Shown: positions 8,824-22,644, counted from the first letter of the stretch. The stretch is 64,000 bases of DNA from a bacterium (GCA_017405875.1 JAFQZM010000038.1:89261-153260), one strand, 5' to 3'. Notes: generated by a model not told the origin, from the letters alone. Translations and numbers: made by a program.

Positions 8824-11304
8824 CTACTGTTCCTTTTTGTAGATTACTTTTCTCGGTTTTGAGCCGTCTGCGGGAGTGACGATTCCTTCATCTTCAAATC
8901 TGTCAACGATTCTGGCTGCGCGGTTGTAGCCGAGTTTGAATTTGCGCTGAAGCATGCTTGCGCTGCATTCGCCGGTATTCATGATGTAGGCGAGGATTTC
9001 GTCGTAAAGCGGTTCATCGTCATTCGAGCCGCCGGAAGCATCACCTGTCGAGCCACCGCTTTTTCCGCCTTCGCTCTGGAAGTTTTCGAGAATGTCTTCG
9101 GGATGGTAGTCGCCGCCCGCTTCCTGTTTGATGAAGTCGATGACTGCTTCCATTTCAGGCGTGCTGACGAAAGCTCCGTGGATTCGCATCGGGATCGATG
9201 TGCCGGGCGCGATGTAGAGCATGTCGCCGTTTCCGAGCAGGGCGTCTGCGCCGTTCGTGTCGAGAATGACTCTCGAATCCATTGCTGATGCGACTTTGAA
9301 GGCGATTCTGACCGGAAGGTTACTTTTGATAAGTCCGGTAACGACATCCCTCGTCGGTTTCTGCGTTGCGATAATCAAGTGAATACCGACTGCTCTTGCT
9401 TTCTGCGCGATTCTGGCAACTGCGATTTCAACTTCTTTGCCTGCAACCATCATAAGGTCAGCGAACTCGTCAATAACGACGACGATAAACGGCATTTTTT
9501 TTAGGTGACTTTCTTCAGCAGCCAGATTTTTATTGATTTCGTTGATTTTCTGATTGTATTCGCCGATATCCTTGACTTTGTTTTCAGCAAGTGTCCTGAA
9601 TCGGTTGTCCATTTCCATGACCGCCCACTGGAGCGCCTTTGCCGCTTTTTTGCTGTCGACAACGACCGGAAGAAGCATGTGCGGGATACCTTCGTACATG
9701 TTGAACTCGTTTCCTTTCGGGTCGATCATGATGAATTTGACTTCATCAGGCGTGAGAGTGTAGAGAAGGGAGATAATGAAACTGTTTATGCCGACCGATT
9801 TTCCGCTTCCCGTCGTTCCTGCGACAAGTACGTGCGGCATTTTGTTGAGGTTTGCGGCACACGGTTTGCCCGCGACATCAAGTCCCAAAGCTATCGGCAG
9901 ACCTTTGGTAGACGCGGTTTTGAAAACCGGACTTTCGATAATCGACTTGAGTCTGATGGTGAGCCTTTCCTCATTGGGAATTTCGATTCCGATGTAAGGT
10001 TTGCCGGGAATGAAACCGACGACGCGCACTTCTTTTCCGCTGACTGCGACGGTGAGATCTTTCGCCATTCCTTCGACCTGACTGACTTTGACGCCTTCGC
10101 CGAGCTCGATTTCGTACATCGTGACGACGGGGCCTATCGTTGCGCCGTGGACTTTGACTTTTATTTTGTGCTCAAGGAGCTTTCTTTCGATGATAAGTCC
10201 GGTGTTGCTGACTTCCTGCTCCCTTTTTTCGGAAGTTTCGAGGTCTTCGCCAGGAACGAGAAGCGATACGTCGGGCAGATGGTAGTCTTTGAGTTTTCTC
10301 AAAACAGAAGTTGTCGCAATTGTCTGGTTAAGTTCGCTCGTAACGACTTCTATCTGTTCGTGATGTTCTTCCCCTGCTTCTTCTTTTTGAGGAATTTCTT
10401 CAATGTTTTCAAGTTCTTTTGCTTCGTTAGTCTCTTCCGGAATTTTTACCGGAATTTCTTCGGGCTTTTCTTCCTGTTCTTCTTCGGGAATATTGTTGAA
10501 ATCGCTCATGCTGCTGATTTTGATTCTCGGCGGTTCAGGTTCTTCATCGGCAAGAGAAACGACTGACGGACCGTAGTTGTCGCTCTCGATTTCGTCTTCG
10601 ATCTCTTCCATCGATTTGCCTGAATTTATGCTGACATAGTTGTGATCGTCATTTTTTTCTTTCTTTTCTTCCGGCTCATTTTGACTCTCTTCAATCGTGT
10701 CATCCGGTCTGTTGTCGGTAAAAAACTCTTTCAGAATAAGAGCAATTTTTGCACAGAATTTGAAGAAACTTACGTGGAATGTAAGGATCATAAAAAGTAT
10801 CGCCCAGCAGACGAAAATAAGTATGAAACCGGTTCTTCCGATATAGATTTCAAAAAATTTCTGATATAGAAAATGCCCTGCGTAATTTGCCTTGCTTGAA
10901 GAAAAAGTGTCTGTTATCATTGATAAAAATGGAAGCAGAATGACAAAGTTCACGAGGTTGAGCAGAATATGCTTCCAAAGTTTCTTCTTTAGGAAAAAAA
11001 TCGTGACAAAGGCGATGATCCCGAGTGGAATATAGAAAGAAACGATGCCGAAAAGGTTGTCAAGAAGGTGTGCGCAGTCATAACCGAGCGAGCCCGTGAA
11101 AAAATTCTCCTGAATCATTTTATGCCCGGAAGCTCTGGCGGAATAGTATGAAACGAGTGAAATCAGCGTGAAGATCGTCGGAACCGCCAGAATGCAGGTC
11201 ACTATCTCACCGGTGTATGAATTTTTGTCGACGGTTTTGACTTCTTTCGTATCTTTTGTTTTTTTCGGTTTCTGCGTTTCTGTAGTTTTATTTTTCTGCG
11301 ACAC
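8824..11304 (-). CDS. ftsK: DNA translocase FtsK
   Basis: N-terminal TM helices, acidic linker, MPHVLVAGTTGSGKS, IDEFADLMM, QKARAVGIHLIIATQKP, gamma domain SASMLQRKFKLGYNRAARI. GTG 11304 has a GGAG RBS. Confidence 0.96.
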   Translation of the reverse strand: MSQKNKTTETQKPKKTKDTKEVKTVDKNSYTGEIVTCILAVPTIFTLISLVSYYSARASGHKMIQENFFTGSLGYDCAHLLDNLFGIVSFYIPLGIIAFVTIFFLKKKLWKHILLNLVNFVILLPFLSMITDTFSSSKANYAGHFLYQKFFEIYIGRTGFILIFVCWAILFMILTFHVSFFKFCAKIALILKEFFTDNRPDDTIEESQNEPEEKKEKNDDHNYVSINSGKSMEEIEDEIESDNYGPSVVSLADEEPEPPRIKISSMSDFNNIPEEEQEEKPEEIPVKIPEETNEAKELENIEEIPQKEEAGEEHHEQIEVVTSELNQTIATTSVLRKLKDYHLPDVSLLVPGEDLETSEKREQEVSNTGLIIERKLLEHKIKVKVHGATIGPVVTMYEIELGEGVKVSQVEGMAKDLTVAVSGKEVRVVGFIPGKPYIGIEIPNEERLTIRLKSIIESPVFKTASTKGLPIALGLDVAGKPCAANLNKMPHVLVAGTTGSGKSVGINSFIISLLYTLTPDEVKFIMIDPKGNEFNMYEGIPHMLLPVVVDSKKAAKALQWAVMEMDNRFRTLAENKVKDIGEYNQKINEINKNLAAEESHLKKMPFIVVVIDEFADLMMVAGKEVEIAVARIAQKARAVGIHLIIATQKPTRDVVTGLIKSNLPVRIAFKVASAMDSRVILDTNGADALLGNGDMLYIAPGTSIPMRIHGAFVSTPEMEAVIDFIKQEAGGDYHPEDILENFQSEGGKSGGSTGDASGGSNDDEPLYDEILAYIMNTGECSASMLQRKFKLGYNRAARIVDRFEDEGIVTPADGSKPRKVIYKKEQ

Positions 11305-12859
11305 GGTAAACTCCGATTGAAAGTGTTTTATCAAAATTTTTATATTCTTTGTCGTAAAGCGACATCAATCTGCTTTCGTTGGAAAGGGCGGTTTTGACCG
11401 AAACCGATCCCCAGCTGTCGCCCTCACCGATTTTTTCAAGCATTTTGTGGATAGTCTCAAAACCTTTTCCGGCAAGAGATTTTTCGATTTTTTCAAGCGT
11501 TTCTTCTGCATTTACGCTGCGGAGAACGAAAGTGACGATCGAGGTATCGTTTATTTCAGGATCGCCGAAAAGCGCTTTAAAGCCTGAAACTTCCGAAATA
11601 TCTGCGACAGAAGTCGATTCTTTTATTGTTCCACCCGAAAAAAGGTAGAGATTTTCAGGCATTTTACCCGAAATCATGACGTTTCCTGAACTGAAAAACG
11701 AATCCCTGACTGCTTCAAAATCGACAAACTGCTTTTTGTTTTCGAGGTTTTTGCCGCCTAAAAAAGTTTTGTCTGCAAACACAAGTTTTTTTGCGATTTT
11801 GAGTGAGAGAAGGTTTGCGTACATAGTGTCGGGATAGGTTTCAAGCTGCCTTTCAGAAGAAATCACCCACAAAAAAAGCGATTCGGGATCGTTAATTTCA
11901 GTCGAAAATCCGAGTTCTCCTGAAAAAAGATAAAGCTGCGGGATCACTGAAGATGCTGCAAAATTCGGTGAGTAGAATGAGCCGCTTTCAAAAGGAAGTT
12001 TGTGGCTCTGAGCAAGAGAGTAGAGGTATTTCAGCGCGACTTCTTCAGAAACTGCAAGATTTGCCGCACCTGAGTTGAAAATTATCGCGTTTCTGCCGTT
12101 TTCGAGAACTGTTTTTCCTGCTTCGGTTTTCTTCCAGCCGCTTTTTTTCACGCCGACTTCCGCTTTTTCGTTTCCGCACAAAGTAAAAACAGCAAAATCG
12201 CCTGGAAGCGGTTTGACTGTGTTTTCAAAGTCGATTGAGGAGTAGAGGAAAAGGGCTATTTTCCATCTTCCCTGAATGTCGGCCGGAATGTTGAGGATGA
12301 TTCCGTTACCGTTATCGGTGCCGAAAGAGTGCTTTACTCCGATATTTTCGAGATAGTGCGAAAGGTAAAGCATTTTTGCGTTCCAGCCTTTGAAGGAAAG
12401 CCCTTCTTCGTAAGTTTCAGCTGCCTTAAGTTTATCTGTAAAGCGTGTTTCGTCGTGGATCTTTTTTATTGTTTTGCCTGAATTTTTTATTCCGTAAAGT
12501 GAGGCGCTTTCTTTTTTGAAAAACGCTTTCAAAAGATAGTCTGCAATTTCATTCTGCGTGTTTCCGGTGGAGTCGGCTGAAAAATCAGGCTCTTTATCCA
12601 GAAACCAGCAGCTTTTTGAAAGCGTTGATTTGCTGCTTAAAACACTGATCCCGTTTTTTGAAAGCATTTGCGAATAACTTTCCGCCGCCTTTTCGATATC
12701 GCTCAAAACGGCATTTGACGGCAGTTTTGAAAAGTAGAAGCAGAGTTCGTAAAAATCGGTCGAATCCTCTTTTTCGACTTTGTCGTTTTTGCTGCAGCAG
12801 ACGAAAAAAAGTGTCGCCAAAAAGAGAAAAAGCAAAATTCTTTTGATTAGTAGTTCCAT
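11288..12859 (-). CDS. Hypothetical lipoprotein
   Basis: 523-aa ORF with lipobox-like LFFVCC; overlaps the ptsI stop and the ftsK start. Confidence 0.6.
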   Translation of the reverse strand: MELLIKRILLFLFLATLFFVCCSKNDKVEKEDSTDFYELCFYFSKLPSNAVLSDIEKAAESYSQMLSKNGISVLSSKSTLSKSCWFLDKEPDFSADSTGNTQNEIADYLLKAFFKKESASLYGIKNSGKTIKKIHDETRFTDKLKAAETYEEGLSFKGWNAKMLYLSHYLENIGVKHSFGTDNGNGIILNIPADIQGRWKIALFLYSSIDFENTVKPLPGDFAVFTLCGNEKAEVGVKKSGWKKTEAGKTVLENGRNAIIFNSGAANLAVSEEVALKYLYSLAQSHKLPFESGSFYSPNFAASSVIPQLYLFSGELGFSTEINDPESLFLWVISSERQLETYPDTMYANLLSLKIAKKLVFADKTFLGGKNLENKKQFVDFEAVRDSFFSSGNVMISGKMPENLYLFSGGTIKESTSVADISEVSGFKALFGDPEINDTSIVTFVLRSVNAEETLEKIEKSLAGKGFETIHKMLEKIGEGDSWGSVSVKTALSNESRLMSLYDKEYKNFDKTLSIGVYRVAEK

Positions 12860-14595
12860 TCTTTCTTGAATATATTCGGGTATTTATCAACCATGCAGCG
12901 TTTGAGGAGTTCTATTACTTCCTCTCTGTCTTTTGCCGCCATCATGAGCGAAAGGATCTCTTCTCCTTCACGCAGGTATCCGCATTTTATAATCTTTTTT
13001 ATTATCGGGATCGATGCCGGATTCATACTGAGCGCGTCTATTCCCATAGCAAGGAAAAGAAGCGGCAGGTAAGGGTCGCTCGCCATTTCGCCGCAGATAT
13101 TCACCGGTTTGTTTTTTGCCTTTGCGACAGTAACTATCTGGTTTATTACTCTGAGAACAGCCGGATGGTAGTATGAAAAATAGTCGGATGAAAACTGATC
13201 CTTTCTTTCGACCGCCATTAAATACTGGATGAGGTCGTTTGTTCCGATGCTGAAAAAATCGACTTCATCGGCAATTTTTTCGATTATGAAAACCGATGCC
13301 GGAACCTCTATCATCGCGCCGATCCTGATGCTTTTGAGGTTTTCCGAAAGTCCCATATCTCCGGCTGTTTTGTAGAGGAGATTTCTGAAATCGTCGACTT
13401 CGTGAGTCGTGCTGACAAAGGGAAGAAGAATGTCCAGGTTTCCGAGTTTTGCTGCTCTGACAAGTGCTCTTATCTGCGGAATGAAAACGTCGGGACGCCC
13501 TTTACAGAGCCTGATCCCGCGCATTCCCATAAAGCCTTTTGTGACTATCGCACCGCTTTTGTCTTCGCCGAAATCGAAAATTCTTATCGCGGCTCTAAGC
13601 GGCAGAGCCTGATGCAGCACCTGATAGTAAACATCGTAGTGAGCGTCTTCGGAAGGGATCTCGCCGTCTTTTGAAAACATGAGTTCCGTTCTGAAAAGAC
13701 CGATAAATTCGCCGCCGTATTTTTTGACGAAATCGACTTCGCCTGTCTGGTCTATGTTGCCTCCGACTCTAAGTCTGCGGTTGTCACGCGATATTGAAGG
13801 AGTCGAAATATCTTCCAGAAAGCGTGCAAAGTAGCTTTTGAATTCGTCAGCCTTGCGAAGAGCGTTGTTTATTTCATCGGCTGCCGGCCTGAGAACGACG
13901 CGCCCTTTGAAGCCGTTGACGATGAGCATGTCGCCGTAGTCAAGCAGATGAATGAGGTCGGGAACGCCCATGACTGCAGGGATTTCAAGCGAACGGAGCA
14001 CCATCGTCAAGTGGCTGACTCCGCCCGGAGATTCAAGAACTATTCCCTTGACATTCGGATTTTTGGAAAGGACGTGAAGTTCATCTACGGTCAGATTTTT
14101 TGCACAGACTATGAAATCTTCGTCGGGAAGCCTGTTCAGAACAGAGTGAGTGCCGCCCGTAAGTTCCGAAACCAGTTTGTCGCGGATAACTTCCCAGTCT
14201 GCGATTTTTGCTTTGACGTAGTAGTCGGTCGTATTCTGGTCAAGCACCGAAATGAGTTTGTCGAAAACTCCGAGCACTGCCCATTCGGCGTTGATCCTGC
14301 TTGATTTTATCATGTTTCCGACCATGTCCGAAAGGGTGGGGTCGGTGAGCATCATTTTGTGCGCTTCAAGGATGGACGCGGTTTCCGAGCCGATATTCTT
14401 CTGCGATAAAATGTTTTCCAGTTCGCGTTCCGAAGCTGTTACGGCTGATTGAAAGCGTTCGATTTCATATGGGATTTCTTCAATTTTCAGGTCAATGTGC
14501 GGGATTTTGGAATATTTGCGGTCAATAAAGAAAAGTTTTCCCGCGCCTATTCCGCCGCAGACTTTTTCACCCTGAAGTTCAAGCCTTTCCCGCAA
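12847..14595 (-). CDS. ptsI: PTS enzyme I (PEP-protein phosphotransferase)
   Basis: Phospho-His motif GGVSHLTMVLRSLEIPAVMG; GLFRTE, MIEVP, FSIGTNDLIQY, ICGEMA. Confidence 0.95.
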   Translation of the reverse strand: MRERLELQGEKVCGGIGAGKLFFIDRKYSKIPHIDLKIEEIPYEIERFQSAVTASERELENILSQKNIGSETASILEAHKMMLTDPTLSDMVGNMIKSSRINAEWAVLGVFDKLISVLDQNTTDYYVKAKIADWEVIRDKLVSELTGGTHSVLNRLPDEDFIVCAKNLTVDELHVLSKNPNVKGIVLESPGGVSHLTMVLRSLEIPAVMGVPDLIHLLDYGDMLIVNGFKGRVVLRPAADEINNALRKADEFKSYFARFLEDISTPSISRDNRRLRVGGNIDQTGEVDFVKKYGGEFIGLFRTELMFSKDGEIPSEDAHYDVYYQVLHQALPLRAAIRIFDFGEDKSGAIVTKGFMGMRGIRLCKGRPDVFIPQIRALVRAAKLGNLDILLPFVSTTHEVDDFRNLLYKTAGDMGLSENLKSIRIGAMIEVPASVFIIEKIADEVDFFSIGTNDLIQYLMAVERKDQFSSDYFSYYHPAVLRVINQIVTVAKAKNKPVNICGEMASDPYLPLLFLAMGIDALSMNPASIPIIKKIIKCGYLREGEEILSLMMAAKDREEVIELLKRCMVDKYPNIFKKEWNY

Positions 14596-14862
14596 TTATT
14601 CTTCCCCGAATTTTGTTTCGACAAGTTGTGTGAGAGCCTTCAGACACTCTTCTTCCGATTCGCCGTTCGTGCTTATTTTAACGGTGGAGCCGAGCGGAGC
14701 TGCCAGCATGAGGATTCCCATGATGCTTTTTGCATTAACGCGGATTCCGTCTTTTTCCATCTCTACTCCGCATTTGAATTTTTCGGCAGTTTTAACAAAA
14801 AGGCTGGCTGCACGCGCATGAAGACCGAGTTTGTTTTGTATCGTAAGTTCAACTTCTCTCAT
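14596..14862 (-). CDS. ptsH: Phosphocarrier protein HPr
   Basis: GLHARAA (His15) and NAKSIMGILML (Ser46). Confidence 0.97.
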   Translation of the reverse strand: MREVELTIQNKLGLHARAASLFVKTAEKFKCGVEMEKDGIRVNAKSIMGILMLAAPLGSTVKISTNGESEEECLKALTQLVETKFGEE

Positions 14863-15287
14863 TTTGACTCTCTTTTTTCAAGAAGTTGTTTCGCGCCGGT
14901 GATATTCTGTCTTGCGCTGCGGATGATGCCGTCGACCATCGTTCTGATGTCGGAATCGTCATCCATGTGTTCAAGGCTGTACATAACCATCGAAAGGTTT
15001 ACGCCCGAAATGACGTCTACTTCCTCTTTTTTTGCAAGAGAAAGTGCGATGTTTGAAGGACTTCCGCCGAAAATATCAACTAAAATCAATACTTTATGAC
15101 CTTGTTTGATGAAGCTGTCTATCGTGTTTTCAAGATTCGTCTTCATCGAGTCGAGTTCCGTCACCATCGAAAATTCGATCGAAAAAAAGGCGGTCCTTTC
15201 TTTTACGTCAATGTCCATTATGCGTGAAGCAATGTTTAAAAGAGTGCTTCCGAGCTCTCCGTGAGTGATAAAAACAAAAGAGTACAT
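14859..15287 (-). CDS. PTS EIIA component, mannose family (stand-alone)
   Basis: ITHG phospho-His, DIFGGSPSN, ISGVNL. Confidence 0.9.
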   Translation of the reverse strand: MYSFVFITHGELGSTLLNIASRIMDIDVKERTAFFSIEFSMVTELDSMKTNLENTIDSFIKQGHKVLILVDIFGGSPSNIALSLAKKEEVDVISGVNLSMVMYSLEHMDDDSDIRTMVDGIIRSARQNITGAKQLLEKRESK

Positions 15288-16244
15288 TTAATTCCCCTTC
15301 AATCCTTTAAGTTTATTGTCCAATCTTTTTTCCATTTCTTTTGCCGCGAAAAATCCCATTTTTTTGAGAAGGTAGTCGCGGGCTATAGCTTCCATGAGCG
15401 AGCTTAAATTCGAGCCGTTGCGTACTGGAATTATGTAGTAGGCCTTTTTAACGCCCAGGATTTCGTAGTAGTTTATTTTGTCGCCGACGCGCTCATAGTC
15501 GAATTTGTGAATTTCTTCCCACGAAACTAAGCGGACGACGCAGTCGATCTCCTTTTCTGAATCGACCGAGGTTATTCCGAACATCTGCTGAAGATCGACC
15601 AGACCGATGCCTCTGATTTCGATGAAGTTGCGCCCGATCTCGTTGCAGCTTCCGATAAGTCTGTTAGGCGAGAGGCGCCTGATTTCGACAAAGTCATCGG
15701 CAATGAGTTTGTGACCGCGCATGACGAGATCCAAACTGGTTTCGCTTTTTCCGACTCCGCTTTCACCCATGATGAGCATCCCGACACTTAAAACATCGAT
15801 AAGCTGCGCGTGAAGCGAAACTGTAGGTGCTAATGCTGTATTCAGAATGTCTCTCACATAGTCGGTGAAAACGCTTGAAATCATCGTGGTCGACATCAGC
15901 GGAACATTGTATTTGCGGGCTATTTCCTTGAACTGATCCGTCGGTTTCTCAGGGTGTGTGAAAATTACGAGGATCGGTTTTTCCTTGAGAAAAGTTTCGG
16001 ACATCTCAAGCTGCTCATCCATCGGCAGAGTGCGGAGATAGTCCATTTCGCTCTTTCCGAAAAGCTGGATCCTGTTTTTGTAGAGATGGGCTACAAAACC
16101 TGCGATAGAAAGACCGACGACCTGAACTTTGCTTTCGGTAAGTTCGATTTTTTTCATTTCATCTTCGCTCATGTTTTCGAGCGAAAGTTCAAGCTGAGTA
16201 TTTTTCAGCAGATCGTAAAGAGTGTAAAAAGCGGGTCCCGGCAT
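15288..16244 (-). CDS. hprK: HPr(Ser) kinase/phosphorylase
   Basis: LIMGESGVGKSETSLDLVMRGHKLIADD, FIEIRGIGLVD, IPVRNGSNL. Confidence 0.95.
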   Translation of the reverse strand: MPGPAFYTLYDLLKNTQLELSLENMSEDEMKKIELTESKVQVVGLSIAGFVAHLYKNRIQLFGKSEMDYLRTLPMDEQLEMSETFLKEKPILVIFTHPEKPTDQFKEIARKYNVPLMSTTMISSVFTDYVRDILNTALAPTVSLHAQLIDVLSVGMLIMGESGVGKSETSLDLVMRGHKLIADDFVEIRRLSPNRLIGSCNEIGRNFIEIRGIGLVDLQQMFGITSVDSEKEIDCVVRLVSWEEIHKFDYERVGDKINYYEILGVKKAYYIIPVRNGSNLSSLMEAIARDYLLKKMGFFAAKEMEKRLDNKLKGLKGN

Positions 16245-16261: not shown

Positions 16262-17281
16262 TTAGAATTGTTTGAGGAAACGCAGATCGCCTGCATGGAA
16301 ATGGCGGATATCGTCAATTCCGTATTTCATCATCGTAAGTCTTTCGATACCGCCGCCGAATGCAAATCCCGAATAAATTTCAGGGTCGATTCCGCAGTTT
16401 TTCAAAACCTGCGGGTGGATCATTCCGCAGCCCAAATATTCGATCCAGCCAGTCTGCTTGCATACGCTGCAGCCTTTGCCTTTGCAGATCCTGCATTTGA
16501 AATCAAGTTCAAAACCGGGTTCGACGAAGGGGAAGAAGGAAGGTCTGAGTCTGATTTCGACATCTTCGCCGAAAATGCTCGAAACGATCTGCTTCAGCGT
16601 GAAAATAAGGTGCGAAACGGTGATTCCCTTGTCAACGACCAAGCCTTCGCACTGATGGAACGAGTGTTCGTGGCTCGCGTCAACTGCTTCGTTTCTGTAT
16701 GTTTTGCCCGGGCAGACGAATTTGATGGGCGGCTTCTTTGCAAGCATTCCGCGGATCTGTACCGGCGAAGTCTGGCTGCGGAGAAGTTTTCCGTTCTTGA
16801 GCCAGAAAGTGTCCTGCGAATCTCTCGCCGGATGGTCTTCCGGAATGTTGAGCGCGTTGAAGTTGTAGTATTCTTCTTCCATTTCGGGACCGTCCAAAAT
16901 ATCGAAACCCATCGAAATGAAAAGGTCTTCAAGTTCCTTTCTGACGATCGAAAGCGGGTGGATCGAACCCTGAACAGGCGTTTCCGGCCAAGAGATGTCG
17001 CTCCATTCGTTCTCGACTTTCGCATTGATTTCGGCAACTTCCAGCTCTTTAGCCTTTTTCGCGATCGCAGCTTCAAAATCGTTTTTAACATTGTTGATAA
17101 GCTGACCGATCTCTTTTCTCGCCTCGGCCTGAAGGTCTTTCATGTCCTTCATCATAGCGGTGAACTCACCTTTTTTGCCGAGAACGGCGACTCTGAGCTG
17201 CTCAAGAGCGTCCTTTTTGTTGACCTCGCTTATTTTCGCGTTGAAACTCTCTTTCAGAGCCTCTATCTTTTCTTTCATCAT
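16262..17281 (-). CDS. pheS: Phenylalanine--tRNA ligase alpha subunit
   Basis: HPARDSQDTF, LRSQTSPVQ, PSFFPFVEPG, GFAFGGGIERL. Confidence 0.97.
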   Translation of the reverse strand: MMKEKIEALKESFNAKISEVNKKDALEQLRVAVLGKKGEFTAMMKDMKDLQAEARKEIGQLINNVKNDFEAAIAKKAKELEVAEINAKVENEWSDISWPETPVQGSIHPLSIVRKELEDLFISMGFDILDGPEMEEEYYNFNALNIPEDHPARDSQDTFWLKNGKLLRSQTSPVQIRGMLAKKPPIKFVCPGKTYRNEAVDASHEHSFHQCEGLVVDKGITVSHLIFTLKQIVSSIFGEDVEIRLRPSFFPFVEPGFELDFKCRICKGKGCSVCKQTGWIEYLGCGMIHPQVLKNCGIDPEIYSGFAFGGGIERLTMMKYGIDDIRHFHAGDLRFLKQF

Positions 17282-17463
17282 GACTCCCACCTATAAAATT
17301 TAAAAAAACAATTAAAGTTGTGCCTCGCACGGGCGGGAACTTTACTGATAAATGAAAAATTTTCAAGGATAACTAAATTTTTTTATAATTTTGTGCTATA
17401 AGCGCCTGTTTTTTGTTGGTTGAAGTGTTTTTGGAAAAATTTTTATAGATTTTGGAGGTCTTT

Positions 17464-20400
17464 ATGTCTGGCGTTATCAAAACTTCGGAGGCTTTGAAAG
17501 TCAATCTGGCCGAAACTTTCGTTGCGGGTTACGAATTTTCCGAGCAGGAAAAATTCATTCTGAGCGCGGTTGAAAAGCATCCGCTCCTTGAAAAAAGAAT
17601 GAGGACTTTCTTTCTTGAGCTCAACCATCCGTTTCCGAATTTTACCGAAGTAATCGAGGCTTACCGCTGGATAACTCTTGAAAACATGTGGGTCTTTGCC
17701 GATCTTGAAGAGAGCGACAAGCTGCTGAAGCTTCTTGGCGACTATTTCATGCAGATTTTTTCACAGAAGCTCGATATTCCGCAGAGAAACAGGCTCCGTC
17801 AGACGATTTTCAACGTTCTTGAACTGCTTTACAAAATCATGCAGAGCAGCAAAATTTCGGACGATGTTTTCAATTCTTATCTGGATATAACTGAAACGGT
17901 TCTTGCCGACGGCAATCCTGGGCTTATGGAAGCGTCGAGTTCGCTCAAAAAATATGTCGCCGAAATCTGCAAGGACGAGCGTTTCAGCGCCAGAATCTTC
18001 AAAATGCTCAAGCGCGTCATGACCATAAATCTGGACTATTGGAAAAACGTTCAGTCTTTTTCAGACTGGCTTGAAAACAGGAAGATCGAGCACGGCGACG
18101 AGGCTCTGGAGATCGAAAACGCGATCCTTTCGCAGTTCCCGCCGGAGCTTTTCACCGAGTGCGAAGATGGGATAAGTAAGGCTGAAAAGTGTGAAGACTT
18201 CTTCAAACTGCCGGACTACACTTTCTTTACCGACAGATTCCGCAACACGATCGACTTTATCCCGACTCCGATCTGCAAGATCTACTACATTTTCTATCTT
18301 CTCGATTTTTCGTCGATGGAAAGTCTGCGCGAATACCTCCTTTTTGACCTCAACAGAACTCTGAAGATAGTTTCTATCGACGATGCGGGCGAGGCAAAGC
18401 GCTTTATTTCGAGAATGTTCGACTTCTTCAAACCTGTCAGAGAGCTTTTCCAGAGCGCGATTTTAGACTGCGTAAAAACACTCGGAAAAGAGATAGTAAA
18501 ACGCGGCAGTGCTGCAATCTGCGACCACTTTTTTGATGCAGTCATCCGCTTCGGATTCGTTTATCCGGAACTTAAGGGAGTTAACTCTGACTGGCAGATG
18601 ATAGTCGACAAAAACCACGTCAAAAACATCAGGACATGGCTTGAAATAATCGAAGTGAACCCGTCGAAAAGCACAAAACTTCTCTCGGCTCTTCTTGTAA
18701 ATTTGAGGATCGGCGGCGTTTTCATTTCCGATACAGACCTTTTCCAGAGCGATGTTACGAAATTTTTGAACAGCCAGATCGCGCCTGCTTACCACATCGC
18801 GCGTCAGATCGCAGTTCTCTTCCCAGTTTACTTCAACGAGATCGGCGCGGAAGGCGAGCTCAGAAAGATTTCGACCGCGATAGATGAAATCTGCCACAGA
18901 AAGGATCTTCTGACACACTTCCTGAGAAAGCAGATCCATGCCGAGAGCAACAACACCCACATTCAGCTTGCAAAAGACGTTTTCATTTTCTGGCTCACCG
19001 GCAAAAAGGAACACCTGCAGAACAAAATCCCGAACGAAATTTACGAAACTCTCGAACCTGCCGGCGAAATGTACGAAGGTCTGCACGAAGTTGCCCGTTT
19101 CGTGACGAGCAGGGTAAGAGGCGACTACGAAGCTCTTTTCACGATGAAACCGGCGGAAGCGGAGAAAATCATCGCCGATTTCGGCGCGGGTCACGAAGTC
19201 GAGCAGAAAAAAGTCGGTTATCTTTTCAACATCTATCTGCTTCTCAAGGAAAAATATTATCTCAACCCGGGCGATATTGCTAAAAAACTTAAGAAAATCA
19301 CATATATACATCAGGCTACGATCGATGAGTTCGAAGCAGCCATGACTGCCGAGGACTGGAAAAGTGCGGTCAGGATCGCGTTCAAAATCATGTCTGCACT
19401 CAAAAAGACGGTTCTTTCGGAAGAGCAGACCGAAGGAGTCGAAAACATCTACTACAAACGCCACATCGCGATCGGTATTCCTTCGATGTACGGCGAATAC
19501 CGCGAACCGAAATTCGAAGCTCTCGGCATGATTTACAGGATGGAGCAGCTTGTTTCGACGATGGTCGAAAAGCTGGTTTCGACAACAAAACTTCCTTATG
19601 TTTCAGCCGACAATCTGCGTGAAACCTGCGAAATCCTCGAGCTTTTCAGAGAAGGTCTGGAGCTTGGCGGTATCACGAGCGAAAGTTTCAATTCTGACCT
19701 CAAGATGCTTGAATACAGCTTGGTTTCCTCAAGTTTCTCGCTGCATCAGTACACCAACATTTTCGAATTCTTTGCTGAGGATTTGAGCAAAATCGTCTAT
19801 GACTACTTCCTCGGAATCCACGATTCGAACCTCAAAATCGTCCTTGAACAGTATATAGAAAAGCACAATCTCACAGTTTCGTCGGAAAAGGACAAAGAGA
19901 AGATTATCCACAAGAAAAGCGAGGAATTCTACCGCGACATCATCTCGTCGTCATTCCTCATGCAGCAGATCGACAGCCTGATAAACTACCTCCTTTCGAT
20001 CCTGCACGGCATTCCGAAGAGTCTGACGCAGGAAGACATCCACATGATCATGACTTACAAGCGCAAATCGATAATTTCCGAAATCGACAAGAAGGACGAC
20101 GAGCTCGACAATCAGGTCTTCTTCGGCGCAAAAGGGTATTTCCTTAAGAAAATCAAGGCTTACGGAATGCCTGTTCCGCACGGATTCATTCTCACGACCG
20201 AGCTTTTCAGACGCCGCGAAGCGCTCATGAAACACCCCGAAATCGAGAAGGAAATTTATACGACGATATCTGATGAACTCGGTATTCTCGAAGAAAAAAC
20301 CGGGCTTCAGTACGGCAACCCGAACAATCCGCTCATGCTTTCAGTAAGAAGCGGTTCGGCAATGTCGATGCCCGGCGCGATGAACACTTTCCTCAATGTC

Positions 20401-21546
20401 GGAATGAACGACGAATTCGTCGAACAGCTCGCAAAAAGGGAAAATTATGGCTGGACTTCGTGGGACTGCTACAGACGTCTTATCCAGACCTGGGGCATGA
20501 ACTTCGGTATCGACCGCGACTTGTTCGATGCAGTAATTGCCGATTTCAAAAAGGTTTACAAAGTCGAGAAAAAGATCGGCTTCAAGCCTGAAGTCATGAA
20601 ACTTGTCGCCAAGGAATACATGAAGATTCTTGACAGCCAGAAGGTCAAATTCGAGCAGAATCTCCACAAGCAGCTTTTCACTTCGATCCACGCCGTTTTC
20701 GATTCGTGGAATTCGCGCCGCGCCCTTGTTTACCGCGACAAACTCCACATCGCAAGCGAGTGGGGAACGGCGGTCATCGTTCAGAAAATGGTGCTCGGAA
20801 ACATCAACTACGACTCCGGAACGGGCGTTGTTTTCACGCGGGAACCCAACGGCAGAGGCAGAAAAGTCTGTCTGTACGGTGATTTCGTAATGTGTTCTCA
20901 GGGTGAAGACATCGTCGGAGGTCTTGTTCACCCGTACCCGGTTTCGGAAAAGCAGAGACTTGAGATGAAAAACGCGCCCGATATCAGTATGGAAAAAGAT
21001 TTTCCTGAAATATATTCGGCACTTAACGATATCTCGGTCGAACTCATCAACAAGCGCGGTTTCGGTCATCAGGAGATAGAGTTCACCTTTGAAACTTCGA
21101 AAAAACAGGATCTCCACATACTCCAGATCCGCTCGTACCACCAGAACGACCTTATGCAGGAAGAGCTTGTTCCCGACAATCTGCCGCTGATAGGCGAGGG
21201 AACCGGTATCGGAAACAACGTCCTCACAGGAAGAGTCGTCTTCTCGATGGAAGACATCGAAAAGTGCAAAAAACTCTATCCGGGCGAAAAAATCATCGTT
21301 ATGCGTCCCGACACCGTCAGTGACGATATCGACATGATTTTCGAAGCCGACGGACTTGTTACATCCCGCGGCGGCGCTACATCTCATGCGGCTGTCACGG
21401 CAGTACGACTCGGCAAAATCGGTGTCGTCAACTGCAAATCCCTCACCCTGGACGAAGTCAACAAAACCTTCACCTTCGGCGGTGAAACTAAAAACGTTCT
21501 CTGCATACTCACTATCGACGGAAGACGCGGATTCATTTACGGGTAA
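17464..21546 (+). CDS. Large PPDK-like protein: ~885-aa helical N-terminus + ATP-grasp domain + His swivel domain; no pyruvate-binding barrel
   Basis: FFGAKG..PVPHGFILTT, LSVRSGSAMSMPGAMNT, VQKMVLGN..SGTGVVFTR, SQGEDIVGG, GLVTSRGGATSHAAV; ends at IDGRRGFIYG*. Confidence 0.85.
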   Translation: MSGVIKTSEALKVNLAETFVAGYEFSEQEKFILSAVEKHPLLEKRMRTFFLELNHPFPNFTEVIEAYRWITLENMWVFADLEESDKLLKLLGDYFMQIFSQKLDIPQRNRLRQTIFNVLELLYKIMQSSKISDDVFNSYLDITETVLADGNPGLMEASSSLKKYVAEICKDERFSARIFKMLKRVMTINLDYWKNVQSFSDWLENRKIEHGDEALEIENAILSQFPPELFTECEDGISKAEKCEDFFKLPDYTFFTDRFRNTIDFIPTPICKIYYIFYLLDFSSMESLREYLLFDLNRTLKIVSIDDAGEAKRFISRMFDFFKPVRELFQSAILDCVKTLGKEIVKRGSAAICDHFFDAVIRFGFVYPELKGVNSDWQMIVDKNHVKNIRTWLEIIEVNPSKSTKLLSALLVNLRIGGVFISDTDLFQSDVTKFLNSQIAPAYHIARQIAVLFPVYFNEIGAEGELRKISTAIDEICHRKDLLTHFLRKQIHAESNNTHIQLAKDVFIFWLTGKKEHLQNKIPNEIYETLEPAGEMYEGLHEVARFVTSRVRGDYEALFTMKPAEAEKIIADFGAGHEVEQKKVGYLFNIYLLLKEKYYLNPGDIAKKLKKITYIHQATIDEFEAAMTAEDWKSAVRIAFKIMSALKKTVLSEEQTEGVENIYYKRHIAIGIPSMYGEYREPKFEALGMIYRMEQLVSTMVEKLVSTTKLPYVSADNLRETCEILELFREGLELGGITSESFNSDLKMLEYSLVSSSFSLHQYTNIFEFFAEDLSKIVYDYFLGIHDSNLKIVLEQYIEKHNLTVSSEKDKEKIIHKKSEEFYRDIISSSFLMQQIDSLINYLLSILHGIPKSLTQEDIHMIMTYKRKSIISEIDKKDDELDNQVFFGAKGYFLKKIKAYGMPVPHGFILTTELFRRREALMKHPEIEKEIYTTISDELGILEEKTGLQYGNPNNPLMLSVRSGSAMSMPGAMNTFLNVGMNDEFVEQLAKRENYGWTSWDCYRRLIQTWGMNFGIDRDLFDAVIADFKKVYKVEKKIGFKPEVMKLVAKEYMKILDSQKVKFEQNLHKQLFTSIHAVFDSWNSRRALVYRDKLHIASEWGTAVIVQKMVLGNINYDSGTGVVFTREPNGRGRKVCLYGDFVMCSQGEDIVGGLVHPYPVSEKQRLEMKNAPDISMEKDFPEIYSALNDISVELINKRGFGHQEIEFTFETSKKQDLHILQIRSYHQNDLMQEELVPDNLPLIGEGTGIGNNVLTGRVVFSMEDIEKCKKLYPGEKIIVMRPDTVSDDIDMIFEADGLVTSRGGATSHAAVTAVRLGKIGVVNCKSLTLDEVNKTFTFGGETKNVLCILTIDGRRGFIYG

Positions 21547-21609
21547 TCTTTATTTATAGGAAAATTGACTATAATAATGCGTTTTTTTTGTATTTGCAGG
21601 AGATTTTTT

Positions 21610-22644
21610 ATGAAAAAGTTTTTGAATGTTGCTTTTGTTACTATTGCTGCAATGATACTTGTTTCGTGCAGCGGTAAAAATCTTGACGATTTGATTGATG
21701 TCCCGGACACGGGCGATTCCGCTGATTCTTCCGCGACATCTGAACAAAATGACACCGATAATGGCGGTGATACAAATGCAGACACTGCCGATTCCAATGC
21801 CGATACCGGTGATTCGAATACAGACACTGCCGATTCAACTGCTGACACAGGCGATTCGACGACTGATACCGGCGATTCAACTGCTGATACCGGTGATTCC
21901 GGTAACGAAAACGATGCAGACAGTGATTCCGATGATGTTGAAGTTTCGGATGTCGATATGTCGGATAACGATCAGGAAGAGTCCGGTGACGATGCAGATT
22001 CCTCAGATTCTGACAGTGATAACGACAAAGATCCCGCTGATTCTGGAGATGACAATGATCCTTCTGATTCAGGTGATGACAGCGACACCACTGATTCGGG
22101 TGACGACAGCGATACCACTGATTCGGGTGATGACAACGACACCGATTCAGGCGAAAATCAGCAGAAATGCACTGAAATCACTCTTGATCATCCAGACAAA
22201 CTCAGCTACAAGAAAGAGTCTTCACGTAGTTACATATTCAAAACGACATACACTCAGAACACCGGTTCTGCCACATCAGACACTTTTTATCTGAGGTTTT
22301 ATGGCGACACCTATACTTATTCAGGTAATCACCCGTTGGTCGGAACGAACTGGTATGATGACTACGGATATAGCAGCAGCGGAGTTTTCGTATATGTTTA
22401 CGAGGACGAATACTGCGATTCTTACAGCGGCATCTGCTCCCACAACAAAATGTACTTCCAGAGAAAGGGCAATGTAAATGTATCGCTGATTCAAGTTGAT
22501 TCTGGAACAGAGATACTTTACGCAGATCTTGACGGCGTAGAACTTGAGGAAGTCACAATCAACGGTGCAAACCAATCAATACCCAAAGAAGGTGGAGAAT
22601 GTCTTAAAATCAAGGATACAGAGGTTCATTATCAGTGGTATTAA
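21610..22644 (+). CDS. Lipoprotein with D/T/G/S repeat stalk and unnamed beta head domain
   Basis: Lipobox LVSC; DTGDS heptad and GDDSDTTDS nonamer repeats; head bounded by two Cys, homologous to 56504-57259. Confidence 0.75.
   Translation: MKKFLNVAFVTIAAMILVSCSGKNLDDLIDVPDTGDSADSSATSEQNDTDNGGDTNADTADSNADTGDSNTDTADSTADTGDSTTDTGDSTADTGDSGNENDADSDSDDVEVSDVDMSDNDQEESGDDADSSDSDSDNDKDPADSGDDNDPSDSGDDSDTTDSGDDSDTTDSGDDNDTDSGENQQKCTEITLDHPDKLSYKKESSRSYIFKTTYTQNTGSATSDTFYLRFYGDTYTYSGNHPLVGTNWYDDYGYSSSGVFVYVYEDEYCDSYSGICSHNKMYFQRKGNVNVSLIQVDSGTEILYADLDGVELEEVTINGANQSIPKEGGECLKIKDTEVHYQWY
21781..21906 (+). repeat. Intragenic tandem repeat, 6 x 21 nt (DT[A/G]DSxx)
   Basis: Units start at 21781, 21802, 21823, 21844, 21865 and 21886. 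Confidence 0.85.
22039..22152 (+). repeat. Intragenic tandem repeat, about 4 x 27 nt (DSGDDxDxx)
   Basis: Units start at 22039, 22066, 22093 and 22120 (last unit 24 nt). Confidence 0.85.

Follow-up and report, generated by a model that had tools for sequence, protein, structure and literature searches.

PPDK (pyruvate phosphate dikinase; EC 2.7.9.1), represented by the C. symbiosum structures 1KBL and 1DIK, combines ATP-grasp and phosphohistidine swivel domains and carries a T-S-H motif. These features are shared by the protein described here, called BigDK, and the chemistry that leads from ATP to His~PP and then His~P with Pi/PPi is presumably common to both. However, BigDK lacks the PEP/pyruvate TIM barrel of PPDK and has an 885-aa, all-helical N-terminal domain instead, and its domains run acceptor-ATP-His, where those of PPDK run ATP-His-acceptor. 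Also unlike PPDK, BigDK is linked to GAPDH genes.

Glucan water dikinase and phenylphosphate synthase are further kinases of the PPDK/PEP-synthase family that have non-pyruvate acceptors. The same modular logic as in BigDK is seen in rifampin phosphotransferase (5HV1), TalE (an N-P bond-forming kinase), the glutamine kinase Cj1418, and HpeI (9GOJ), where the ATP-grasp domain and the swivelling His serve a family-specific acceptor domain (PMC6482885), and such kinases give weak Foldseek and NCBIfam matches to BigDK. However, the acceptor domains of these non-pyruvate kinases are unrelated to that of BigDK, identity is only 15-17%, and the enzymes have roles in resistance, secondary metabolism, or catabolism with no link to GAPDH. 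Rifampin phosphotransferase also places its rifampin-binding domain between the ATP-grasp and swivel domains, an order that BigDK does not share.

Kinases are paired with acyl-phosphate reductases in PGK/GAPDH, ProB/ProA, ArgB/ArgC, and Ask/Asd. BigDK and its usual genomic partner, GapX, resemble these pairs by functional analogy, in that a phosphoryl-transfer enzyme is matched with a phosphorylating dehydrogenase and the two are often translationally coupled. In sequence and fold, BigDK is unrelated to PGK and to the amino-acid-kinase family, and it would use a phospho-His route that yields AMP (+PPi) instead of ADP. Finally, PTS Enzyme I has a homologous phospho-His mobile domain (PF00391), but BigDK differs from it in having no HPr-binding domain (PF05524), no PEP barrel, and ATP rather than PEP as the donor.

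Gene and family

The gene lies on the plus strand of the window (the whole 64,000-nucleotide stretch of bacterial DNA that was analysed) in an open reading frame spanning 17452-21546. Based on the list of open reading frames, the translation, the upstream GGAGG, and the domain matches, the complete coding sequence, stop codon included, runs from a likely ATG start at 17464 to 21546 and encodes 1360 aa. The ribosome-binding site GGAGG, read off the sequence at 17454..17458 (+), ends 5 nt before this ATG. A consensus scan also found a sigma-70-like promoter candidate (TTTTCA-18-TATAAT, 17360..17389, +; 10/12 matches, by pattern only) inside the 173-nt gap that separates the gene from pheS. The downstream gene encodes an acidic lipoprotein.

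Judged from its sequence, this gene is an intact member of a widespread, uncharacterised, PPDK-derived family in anaerobes. "BigDK" is an operational family definition made in this analysis, and "GAPDH-linked" refers to gene neighbourhood. The family is found in 597 or more species genomes and has a common architecture (helical N-terminal domain, PPDK_N, mobile His domain) over about 1335-1540 aa. GAPDH neighbours are missing from its most distant subfamily, whose members are 1450-1540 aa long, and one distant member bears an N-terminal hemerythrin sensor domain. We found no paper in the literature that describes this family.

PPDK-like ATP-grasp and phosphohistidine domains

Pfam matches PPDK_N (PF01326) to residues 929-1163 (E 1.8e-27) and the PEP-utilizers mobile domain (PF00391) to residues 1276-1356 (E 2.7e-12), and finds no match to the PEP-utilizers_C barrel (PF02896) anywhere in the protein. 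A phmmer search of the PDB (E 1e-64) aligns residues 886-1223 with C. symbiosum PPDK 18-337 and residues 1243-1359 with PPDK 392-506. The first segment (20119..21132, +), which also covers TIGR01828 positions 11-336 and holds the ATP-side catalytic residues, is thus a PPDK-type ATP-grasp nucleotide-binding domain, and the second (21190..21540, +) is a phosphohistidine swivel domain that also matches the isolated carrier domain 2FM4 in Foldseek (TM 0.77). As modelled by AF2, the C-terminal half superimposes on 1KBL, an ATP-side conformer of PPDK, with 2.7 A rmsd over 529 columns at ~30% identity.

The catalytic His1308 (codon 21385..21387, +) lies in the motif GGATSHAAV, maps to C. symbiosum His455, and is at least 97% conserved among 54 diverse BigDK representatives. 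By alignment, every PPDK catalytic residue that was checked is kept: K22 corresponds to K890, R92 to R962, G101 to G971, R135 to R1005, D321 to E1204, E323 to E1206, Q335 to Q1221, R337 to R1223, and T453-S454-H455 to T1306-S1307-H1308. An earlier note on this DNA had placed the PPDK ATP-grasp motifs from about 20118, described the GGATSHAA swivel motif as intact with its His codon at 21385-87, and proposed that the protein stops where the PEP/pyruvate barrel should begin. All of these points hold, as residue 886 falls at nucleotide 20119 and the C-terminus lies one residue past the swivel domain, at the equivalent of PPDK residue 506.

BigDK nevertheless scores below the cut-offs of the named enzyme families: 341.9 bits against 843.45 for PPDK (TIGR01828), 70.9 against 739.75 for PEP synthase (TIGR01418), and 28 against 999 for rifampin phosphotransferase (NF041857). 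Its resemblance to the rifampin phosphotransferase structure is likewise slight (Foldseek TM about 0.2, 16% identity). With neither an equivalog score nor a PEP-binding barrel it is not a PEP synthase, and with neither PF05524 nor that barrel it is not an Enzyme I.

An all-helical N-terminal domain

Residues 1-885 (17464..20118, +) form the presumed acceptor or second active-site domain, as delineated by AF2, Foldseek, and profile searches. The AF2 model (pLDDT 85.9, pTM 0.77) contains only helices apart from one beta-hairpin, which agrees with the earlier description of a helical region of ~885 aa replacing the barrel. This region has no Pfam or NCBIfam match, no PDB profile match, and no structural match in the PDB (best E 5.8e-3, TM 0.2 or less). 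The structures that it weakly resembles are helical-repeat scaffolds such as karyopherins, and no HEAT/TPR-type internal repeats are detectable in it. The domain represents a new fold, for which the model finds no solved structural relative. A permuted pyruvate-binding barrel was considered for this region and is ruled out because residues 1-885 model confidently as all-helical and give no barrel-like match.

The N-terminal domain is under strong purifying selection (dN/dS 0.013-0.025). Across the 54 full-length representatives, which extend down to 25% identity, 25 of its residues are near-invariant (at least 97%), and these are dominated by R, K, H, D, and E. Many fall in two blocks. Block 1 (residues 385-499; 18616..18960, +) includes H385, D423, P454, G461, G464, R467, D474, D481, R488, K489, and H492, which are also invariant in alignments of 61 and 30 sequences; its loops 421-423 and 460-462 are modelled with low pLDDT when AF2 is run on residues 380-1360. 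Block 2 (residues 660-694; 19441..19545, +) is a flexible beta-hairpin loop with the motif ExIYxKRHxAxGIPSMYGxYxExKFEALG, in which K665, R666, H667, S674, Y679, and E681 are near-invariant and residues 664-676 fall below pLDDT 50 in both AF2 models. The window protein has all near-invariant residues of the family domain, including K597, Y598, R824, and D837, and these residues sit in loops that stay disordered in the ligand-free AF2 models.

A search of 1.84 billion proteins with this domain returned 411 representatives and never revealed it standing alone or in another architecture; 126 short matches are mostly partial singletons. PPDK_N was present in all seven long representatives checked by Pfam, the most distant included, and the mobile domain in six, the seventh (1140 aa) appearing to be cut short. 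This pattern supports the view that the N-terminal region behaves like a catalytic or ligand-binding domain. The earlier suggestion that this region holds a non-pyruvate acceptor for the dikinase therefore gains support as far as sequence goes, with a non-barrel domain found only in fusion, low dN/dS, and 25 near-invariant residues.

Linkage to GAPDH-family genes

We surveyed the neighbourhoods of 80 homologous BigDK loci from many phyla, and 68 have a GAPDH-family gene within 4 kb. The usual neighbour is a divergent protein of ~417 aa, GapX, encoded directly downstream, and the start and stop codons of the two genes overlap or abut in several loci. Among loci with usable flanks, only L001, L003, L010, L052, and L065 (Acetobacterium carbinolicum) have no such neighbour. 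Even a 25%-identical BigDK member is followed after 54 nt by a GapX-type gene whose product is 47% identical to the GapX of the window's genome.

Within the window's phylum, 23 of 39 genomes carry BigDK, 22 carry GapX, and 16 have neither, the single mismatch being a 59%-complete MAG. To explain this distribution, the two genes must have been gained or lost together at least twice independently, and the adjacent pair is kept in eight genomes of the phylum. In the window itself no GAPDH-family gene adjoins BigDK; the genome's GapX (404 aa) is encoded outside the window, on contig C11:12283-13497, and is 55-59% identical to the operon-linked GapX proteins of other phyla. The pair has thus been split in this lineage. 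The earlier note overlooked the recurrent GAPDH-family partner, whose gene in this genome sits beyond the window.

GapX keeps equivalents of C149, H176, T179, R195, T208-G209, and R231, so that the catalytic Cys/His and both phosphate sites are retained, and it lacks the NAD-specifying Asp. It carries five to six insertions and scores 304 bits against the type I GAPDH model TIGR01534 (cut-off, 367.2). In Bacteroidota, BigDK is paired with an ordinary type I GAPDH and GapX is absent. Gene linkage and co-occurrence show that the functional partner of BigDK is a GAPDH-family enzyme, usually the dedicated, insertion-bearing paralogue GapX.

Proposed reaction

Our main reading, which we give a probability of about 0.6, is that BigDK is a functional PPDK-derived dikinase with a GAPDH-family partner and that it passes phosphate to a non-pyruvate anionic acceptor. 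From the conserved residues and homology to PPDK, the ATP-grasp domain would bind ATP and would first pyrophosphorylate and then phosphorylate His1308 on the swivel domain. The BigDK domain is PPDK-like rather than PEP-synthase-like, which makes Pi the probable second acceptor and PPi the probable product. The swivel domain would then carry the phosphate to a second active site, possibly formed by the charged N-terminal loops that hold H385, D423, R467, D474, D481, R488, K489, H492, K597, K665-R666-H667, S674, E681, R824, and D837. There, the phosphate would be handed to a small anionic acceptor other than pyruvate.

BigDK most likely acts as a dikinase at the GAPDH step, with a phosphorylated C3 acid as its acceptor. 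We tentatively suggest the reaction 3-phosphoglycerate + ATP + Pi <-> 1,3-bisphosphoglycerate + AMP + PPi, with GapX reducing (or producing) the acyl phosphate, because this would follow the kinase-plus-acyl-phosphate-reductase logic of PGK/GAPDH and the analogous pairs. A still more ambitious version, which we regard as doubtful, gives BigDK a hitherto unrecognised place in the glycolytic trunk: as a 3-phosphoglycerate, phosphate dikinase with a new-fold second site, it would work alongside GapX and offer an AMP/PPi-coupled route in place of PGK. If so, BigDK and PGK expressed together, as might occur from the L094 operon (BigDK-gapX-gap-pgk-tpi), would form a cycle that, with adenylate kinase, nets ATP + Pi -> ADP + PPi. 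Such a cycle would be a biosynthesis-independent source of PPi, of the kind still missing for PPi-dependent glycolysis; for Clostridium thermocellum, this source has been stated to be unresolved (PMC8863071).

Several observations weigh against the main reading. PGK is present in 42 of 44 BigDK carrier genomes, so BigDK fills no missing step, and the pgk gene within the L094 operon would make a plain PGK-like role redundant. GAPDH neighbours are absent from the most distant subfamily, L052, and L065, and Bacteroidota do without GapX. Furthermore, the codon adaptation of BigDK is at the 77th percentile, versus the 92nd-96th for GapX, gap, and PPDK.

Alternative explanations

The lower codon adaptation and the near-universal PGK would suit a regulatory or low-flux "care-taker" role at the GAPDH step better than that of a trunk-pathway enzyme. 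The phospho-His of BigDK might then go to a side-product or cofactor of GAPDH, or else to a protein, either GAPDH/GapX or a bound partner, with the N-terminal domain mainly a docking scaffold. The karyopherin-like structural neighbours and the hemerythrin domain of the distant member are consistent with this role. However, the 25 near-invariant, mostly charged loop residues look more like a site for a small molecule or metal than like a protein interface, and the lack of internal repeats argues against a scaffold. The same N-terminal domain is also conserved whether the partner is GapX or an ordinary GAPDH without its insertions, and distant members have no GAPDH neighbour. We consider this explanation unlikely.

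Alternatively, BigDK could be a structural analogue of PPDK or PEP synthase whose N-terminal domain binds pyruvate or PEP in a new fold, in which case its chemistry would not be new. The C-terminal half is indeed closest to true PPDK, as seen in the TIGR01828 score (342 bits) and in its 30% identity to 1KBL, and several genomes have lower-glycolysis genes close by, with enolase in L003 and gap-pgk-tpi in both L093 and L094. This possibility is improbable given that the window's genome already encodes a canonical, highly codon-adapted PPDK and that nothing in BigDK resembles the PPDK barrel or its motifs. Moreover, the steady neighbour is GAPDH, two to three steps from pyruvate, and not enolase, pyruvate kinase, or a PEP-using enzyme.

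The earlier note had also proposed an ATP input into a divergently encoded EI/HPr/EIIA relay, such that BigDK would be the phospho-His donor of a neighbouring regulatory PTS (EI/HPr/EIIA-Man/HprK). The hprK, EIIA-Man, HPr, and EI genes do lie on the minus strand only 1 kb away (12847-16244), but pheS (16262-17290, -) intervenes, so the arrangement is not directly divergent. Other observations in favour are the homology of the swivel domain to that of Enzyme I (PF00391), an EIIA_2 gene 3 kb upstream of BigDK in L040, and a distant 1433-aa member (L094/L095) located directly downstream of rpoN-hpf-ptsN-rapZ-EIIA-Man-EIIB-EIIC. However, a survey that included a sensitive phmmer scan found no PTS gene within 10 kb in 78 of 80 loci, the exceptions being L040 and L001. 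Even among the closest species, an insertion of 7 kb with unrelated genes separates pheS from BigDK in L001, and L003 (an 87%-identical relative) has enolase and alr upstream in place of the PTS/pheS flank. Enzyme I is absent from 24 of the 44 carrier genomes, and BigDK proteins carry no HPr-binding domain; the window's own Enzyme I (12847-14595) has both PF05524 and the PEP-binding barrel. The relay is not supported because PTS co-localisation is lacking in homologs, and we consider it highly improbable. The PTS genes lie near BigDK through an accident of gene order that is recent and confined to this lineage.

The absence of anything beyond the swivel domain might suggest a PPDK pseudogene, decaying or truncated, or a faulty assembly in which the barrel was lost, but this notion is refuted by conservation, with more than 2,197 homologs of the same length and architecture, dN/dS of 0.02-0.03, and a stop-free frame of ~1360 aa in 13 of 14 other genomes of the same genus. 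In the fourteenth (G101), the frame is 938 aa long and is probably cut by the contig end.

BigDK retains the ATP-charging half of PPDK

BigDK, the window's dikinase derived from pyruvate phosphate dikinase (PPDK), carries an intact PPDK-type ATP site and a carrier histidine. Its gene is a single long open reading frame (17452-21546, forward strand) with a likely ATG start at 17464, preceded by GGAGG five bases before, which yields a protein of 1360 amino acids. Pfam matches in this protein are PPDK_N (residues 929-1163) and the PEP-utilizers mobile domain (1276-1356) and nothing else; the PEP-utilizers_C barrel was not found in this search. A phmmer comparison with the PDB aligned residues 886-1223 and 1243-1359 to residues 18-337 and 392-506 of Clostridium symbiosum PPDK, and BigDK therefore ends one residue past the swivel domain. 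The residues kept (PPDK numbering) are K22, R92, G101, M103, R135, E323, Q335, R337 and T453-S454-H455, which we take to have the roles described for PPDK, and D321 maps to Glu. The catalytic histidine is residue 1308, encoded by 21385-21387. An earlier note on this DNA had described an intact ATP-grasp and swivel half that stops before the barrel; the Pfam matches, alignment and residue mapping bear this out, and the histidine codon that it named is exactly this one.

An AlphaFold2 model of residues 380-1360 (pLDDT 84.9, pTM 0.71) superposes at 2.7-3.0 Å on the PPDK structures 1KBL and 1DIK, whose His domain is turned toward the nucleotide site. The fit to 2R82 and 1VBG, conformers of the PEP side, is poor (13-14 Å).

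Judged from these alignments, the first half-reaction would resemble that of PPDK. However, BigDK lacks the barrel and its top NCBIfam match, the PPDK equivalog, scores 342 bits where the cut-off is 843, which places it outside PPDK proper. In database entries, family members go by "PEP/pyruvate-binding domain-containing protein" or by "pyruvate phosphate dikinase"; naming these proteins pyruvate phosphate dikinase or PEP synthase is a mislabel. BigDK belongs instead to the broader class of PPDK/PEPS-derived enzymes that reuse the ATP-grasp domain and swivel histidine with new acceptor domains (PMC6482885), although the acceptor domains of members such as rifampin phosphotransferase, TalE, Cj1418 and HpeI are unrelated to its N-terminal region.

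The N-terminal domain has no structural precedent

Residues 1-885 (the N-domain) matched no Pfam or NCBIfam model. AlphaFold2, supplied with a 61-sequence alignment, returned a confident model (pLDDT 85.9, pTM 0.77) that is predicted to be wholly helical apart from one beta-hairpin. Foldseek comparison of this model with the PDB gave nothing with E < 1e-3, the nearest matches being karyopherin-like solenoids (TM ≤0.2), and a profile of 30 N-domains had no hmmsearch match in the PDB. Likewise, internal repeats were not detectable when six sub-regions were aligned against one another with hhalign. The earlier note had called for structure prediction and Foldseek on this region and held that a permuted pyruvate-binding barrel would speak against a novel acceptor. 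Because the domain models as helical and has no PDB match, it is not such a barrel, and these searches found no other known fold either.

Among 54 full-length representatives with identities down to 25%, the N-domain has 25 positions with conservation of at least 97%: H385, D423, P454, G461, G464, R467, D474, D481, R488, K489, H492, K597, Y598, K665, R666, H667, I672, P673, S674, G677, Y679, E681, G736, R824 and D837. These group in the motifs FISDTDLFQ, IGAEGxLR, HFLRKQxH and KRHxAxGIPSMYG, whose loops have low AlphaFold confidence in both models; residues 665-676 remain below pLDDT 50 even when the C-terminal half is included. Since the constellation is rich in Arg, Lys, His and Asp, we read it as a putative site for an anionic ligand and a metal.

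The N-domain is obligatorily fused to the dikinase half and strongly constrained. A search for short proteins with the N-domain yielded only 126 matches, mainly "partial" singletons, and phmmer, run exhaustively against 1.84 billion cluster representatives, yielded 411. Of the seven long matches put through Pfam, which included the most distant, all retain PPDK_N and six retain the mobile domain, the seventh (1140 aa) being apparently cut short. These searches therefore gave only fragments or the same architecture, and we rejected standalone or alternative N-domain architectures. For the whole protein, comparisons with orthologues in two sister species gave dN/dS values of 0.020 and 0.029; restricted to the N-domain, the values are 0.013 and 0.025.

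The full architecture of about 1360 aa occurs in more than 2,197 proteins, and BigDK is encoded in at least 597 species genomes. The carriers are mostly anaerobes (Geobacteraceae, Clostridia, Bacteroidales, Cloacimonadota, Atribacterota, Desulfobacterota and rumen lineages). Full-text literature searches found no description of the family. There is also a subfamily of 1420-1433 aa, and the most distant subfamily measures 1450-1540 aa. One 1540-aa distant member (L088:1166-5788) has an N-terminal hemerythrin (HHE cation-binding) domain, which suggests that this subfamily responds to O2, iron or redox conditions; the member is flanked by SH3 and GGDEF proteins, with no GAPDH. Another distant member, of 1457 aa (L087:235-6561), is flanked by flavodoxin/FMN reductase, DUF3047 and cytochrome P460 genes, again with no GAPDH.

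BigDK is coupled to a GAPDH-family partner

Clustering of all neighboring open reading frames at 80 loci of BigDK homologues revealed one neighbor that recurs across phyla, a GAPDH-family protein. Such a gene lies within 4 kb of BigDK at 68 of the 80 loci, and only L001, L003, L052, L065 and L010 lack one among loci with usable flanks. The partner takes two forms. GapX, a divergent paralogue of about 417 aa, is encoded immediately 3' of BigDK in the same orientation, in some cases with an overlap at the stop codon. This form occurs in Geobacteraceae, Clostridia, Cloacimonadota, Calditrichales, Ignavibacteria and Desulfobacterota. The other is an ordinary 335-aa type I GAPDH encoded directly upstream, which is divergently oriented in Bacteroidota and co-directional in five loci that have both forms. 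Even a member with just 25% identity to BigDK of the window has a GapX-type gene 54 nt downstream, and the 1420-1433-aa subfamily has the arrays gap-BigDK-gapX or BigDK-gapX-gap-pgk-tpi. No GAPDH neighbor was seen in the 1450-1540-aa subfamily. In GapX the catalytic Cys and His are retained, as are both sets of phosphate-site residues; the NAD-specifying Asp is missing, there are five to six insertions, and the score against the type I GAPDH model is 304 bits, under the cut-off of 367. This linkage shows that BigDK is evolutionarily coupled to a phosphorylating GAPDH-type dehydrogenase.

In the window's own genome, contig C11 encodes a GapX orthologue (12283-13497) that is 55-59% identical to the operon-linked GapX of other phyla. 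This genome also carries a canonical tpi-x-gap-pgk cluster (contig C1) and a canonical PPDK (contig C39). Among 39 genomes of the window's phylum, BigDK occurs in 23, GapX-type genes in 22 and neither in 16, and the sole mismatch is a metagenome-assembled genome that is 59% complete. The two genes are jointly absent within a BigDK-positive family and jointly present in an otherwise negative order. They are adjacent in eight genomes of the phylum, two of the same genus among them, and are split in the window's subclade, where both are still 95-99% conserved.

On C11, a co-directional gene for a 526-aa MFS_1 transporter comes after GapX (10651-13497 for both). The arrangement resembles the GAPDH-ArsJ arsenate-resistance pair, and this GapX scores 169 bits against the ArsJ-associated GAPDH model, far under its cut-off of 450.

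PTS genes are occasional neighbors

The earlier note had placed BigDK next to an orphan PTS and proposed, as one of two readings, that it feeds ATP-derived phosphate into an EI/HPr/EIIA relay. The genes are indeed nearby in the window (hprK, EIIA-Man, HPr and EI, 12847-16244, minus strand), but pheS (16262-17290, minus strand) lies in between. They form a compact "regulatory" cluster with pheS upstream and no EIIB or EIIC beside it. A 523-aa open reading frame between EI and ftsK (11288-12859) has no Pfam or NCBIfam match.

When the window's EI, HPr, EIIA and HprK were compared by tblastn with the 80 loci (10-kb flanks), only L001 matched. Six-frame phmmer, the more sensitive scan, with these proteins and those of another lineage added a single EIIA_2 gene, 3 kb upstream at L040. 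Furthermore, Enzyme I is present in 20 and absent from 24 of 44 BigDK-carrying genomes. PTS linkage was thus rejected as a family feature, and because homologue neighborhoods mostly lack PTS genes, the relay is refuted at family level by the standard that the earlier note itself had set.

L001 belongs to a sister species and has 7 kb of unrelated genes between pheS and BigDK; this insert (L001:2913-9467) encodes a DUF4143/AAA_14 ATPase and two large Lcl_C-domain proteins. At L003 (87% nucleotide identity), enolase and alanine racemase genes lie upstream of BigDK. The slot 3' of BigDK is filled by unrelated genes that differ from one sister species to the next, and it looks like a variable insertion spot. 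Because the BigDK-GapX pair is split and this slot varies among sister species, the window's gene order is derived and its PTS closeness is a by-product; the adjacency is a recent rearrangement. In the window, the slot (21565-22644, forward strand, 19 nt downstream of BigDK) encodes a lipoprotein-like product that has a signal peptide with an LVSC lipobox and a long acidic repeat stalk rich in Asp, Ser and Thr. In L001 the slot is occupied by a gene for a membrane-like protein (318 aa) and in L003 by one for a Golvesin/amidase protein (1045 aa).

PTS neighbors do recur at times, far too seldom to define BigDK function. In a distant member (L094/L095), BigDK lies directly downstream of rpoN-hpf-ptsN-rapZ-EIIA-EIIB-EIIC. 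On the 3.3-Mb contig of this second lineage with PTS-type neighbors (L094:1214-16628), it sits between rpoN-hpf-ptsN-rapZ-EIIA-Man-EIIB-EIIC-acetyltransferase and gapX-gap-pgk-tpi-secG, heading the core glycolysis operon.

A proposed reaction at the GAPDH step

Our preferred reading, to which we assign a probability of roughly 0.6, is that BigDK acts as a dikinase on a metabolite and is linked in function to the GAPDH step and not to the PTS. ATP would charge His1308, with Pi converted to PPi as in PPDK, and the swivel domain would carry the phosphate to an acceptor held in the N-domain. By prediction, GapX deals with an acyl phosphate bearing a further phosphate group. Labile acyl phosphates are repeatedly handled by a kinase paired with a reductase (PGK/GAPDH, ProB/ProA, ArgB/ArgC and Ask/Asd). 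For these reasons, we take 3-PG/1,3-BPG as the leading acceptor and tentatively propose, by analogy with such pairs, the possible reaction 3-PG + ATP + Pi <-> 1,3-BPG + AMP + PPi.

Several observations weigh against this reaction. Phosphoglycerate kinase (PGK) is present in 42 of 44 carrier genomes, so replacement of PGK by BigDK was rejected, and in some genomes PGK is even co-operonic with BigDK. In addition, codon adaptation, a weak proxy for expression, is at the 77th percentile for BigDK versus the 92nd-96th for GapX, gap and PPDK. Because PGK is near-universal and BigDK has this lower codon adaptation, a regulatory or care-taker role, though somewhat unlikely, stays a serious rival, and the hemerythrin sensor domain of one distant member speaks in its favor. 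That the acceptor is pyruvate or PEP bound in a new fold is improbable, as it fits the gene linkage poorly.

BigDK is tightly coupled in evolution to a GAPDH paralogue dedicated to it, and this points to a reaction or control point, not described before, at the step of sugar metabolism that is most conserved. Should 3-PG or 1,3-BPG prove to be the acceptor, anaerobic glycolysis and gluconeogenesis would need new energy and PPi balances, and models of metabolism in rumen, gut and sediment bacteria would have to be corrected. PGK, a 3-PG dikinase and adenylate kinase together would convert ATP + Pi to ADP + PPi. The non-biosynthetic PPi source for the PPi-dependent glycolysis of C. thermocellum is still unidentified (PMC8863071). 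Whatever the acceptor, the classic swivelling histidine would here serve a catalytic fold that is new, the N-domain.

A link to PPi economy within the window's phylum was uninformative, with H+-PPase in 36 and PFK-like genes in 38 of 39 genomes irrespective of BigDK. No pgk or tpi gene was found within 10 kb of BigDK in the first 80 loci, and pgk-tpi adjoin it in the 1420-1433-aa subfamily. The window's genome encodes a second, divergent PGK paralogue (C8:19373-20659; 428 aa, 273 bits to PF00162), with codon adaptation at the 93rd percentile versus the 49th for the canonical pgk next to gap. This divergent type is the sole PGK match in two Cloacimonadota genomes.
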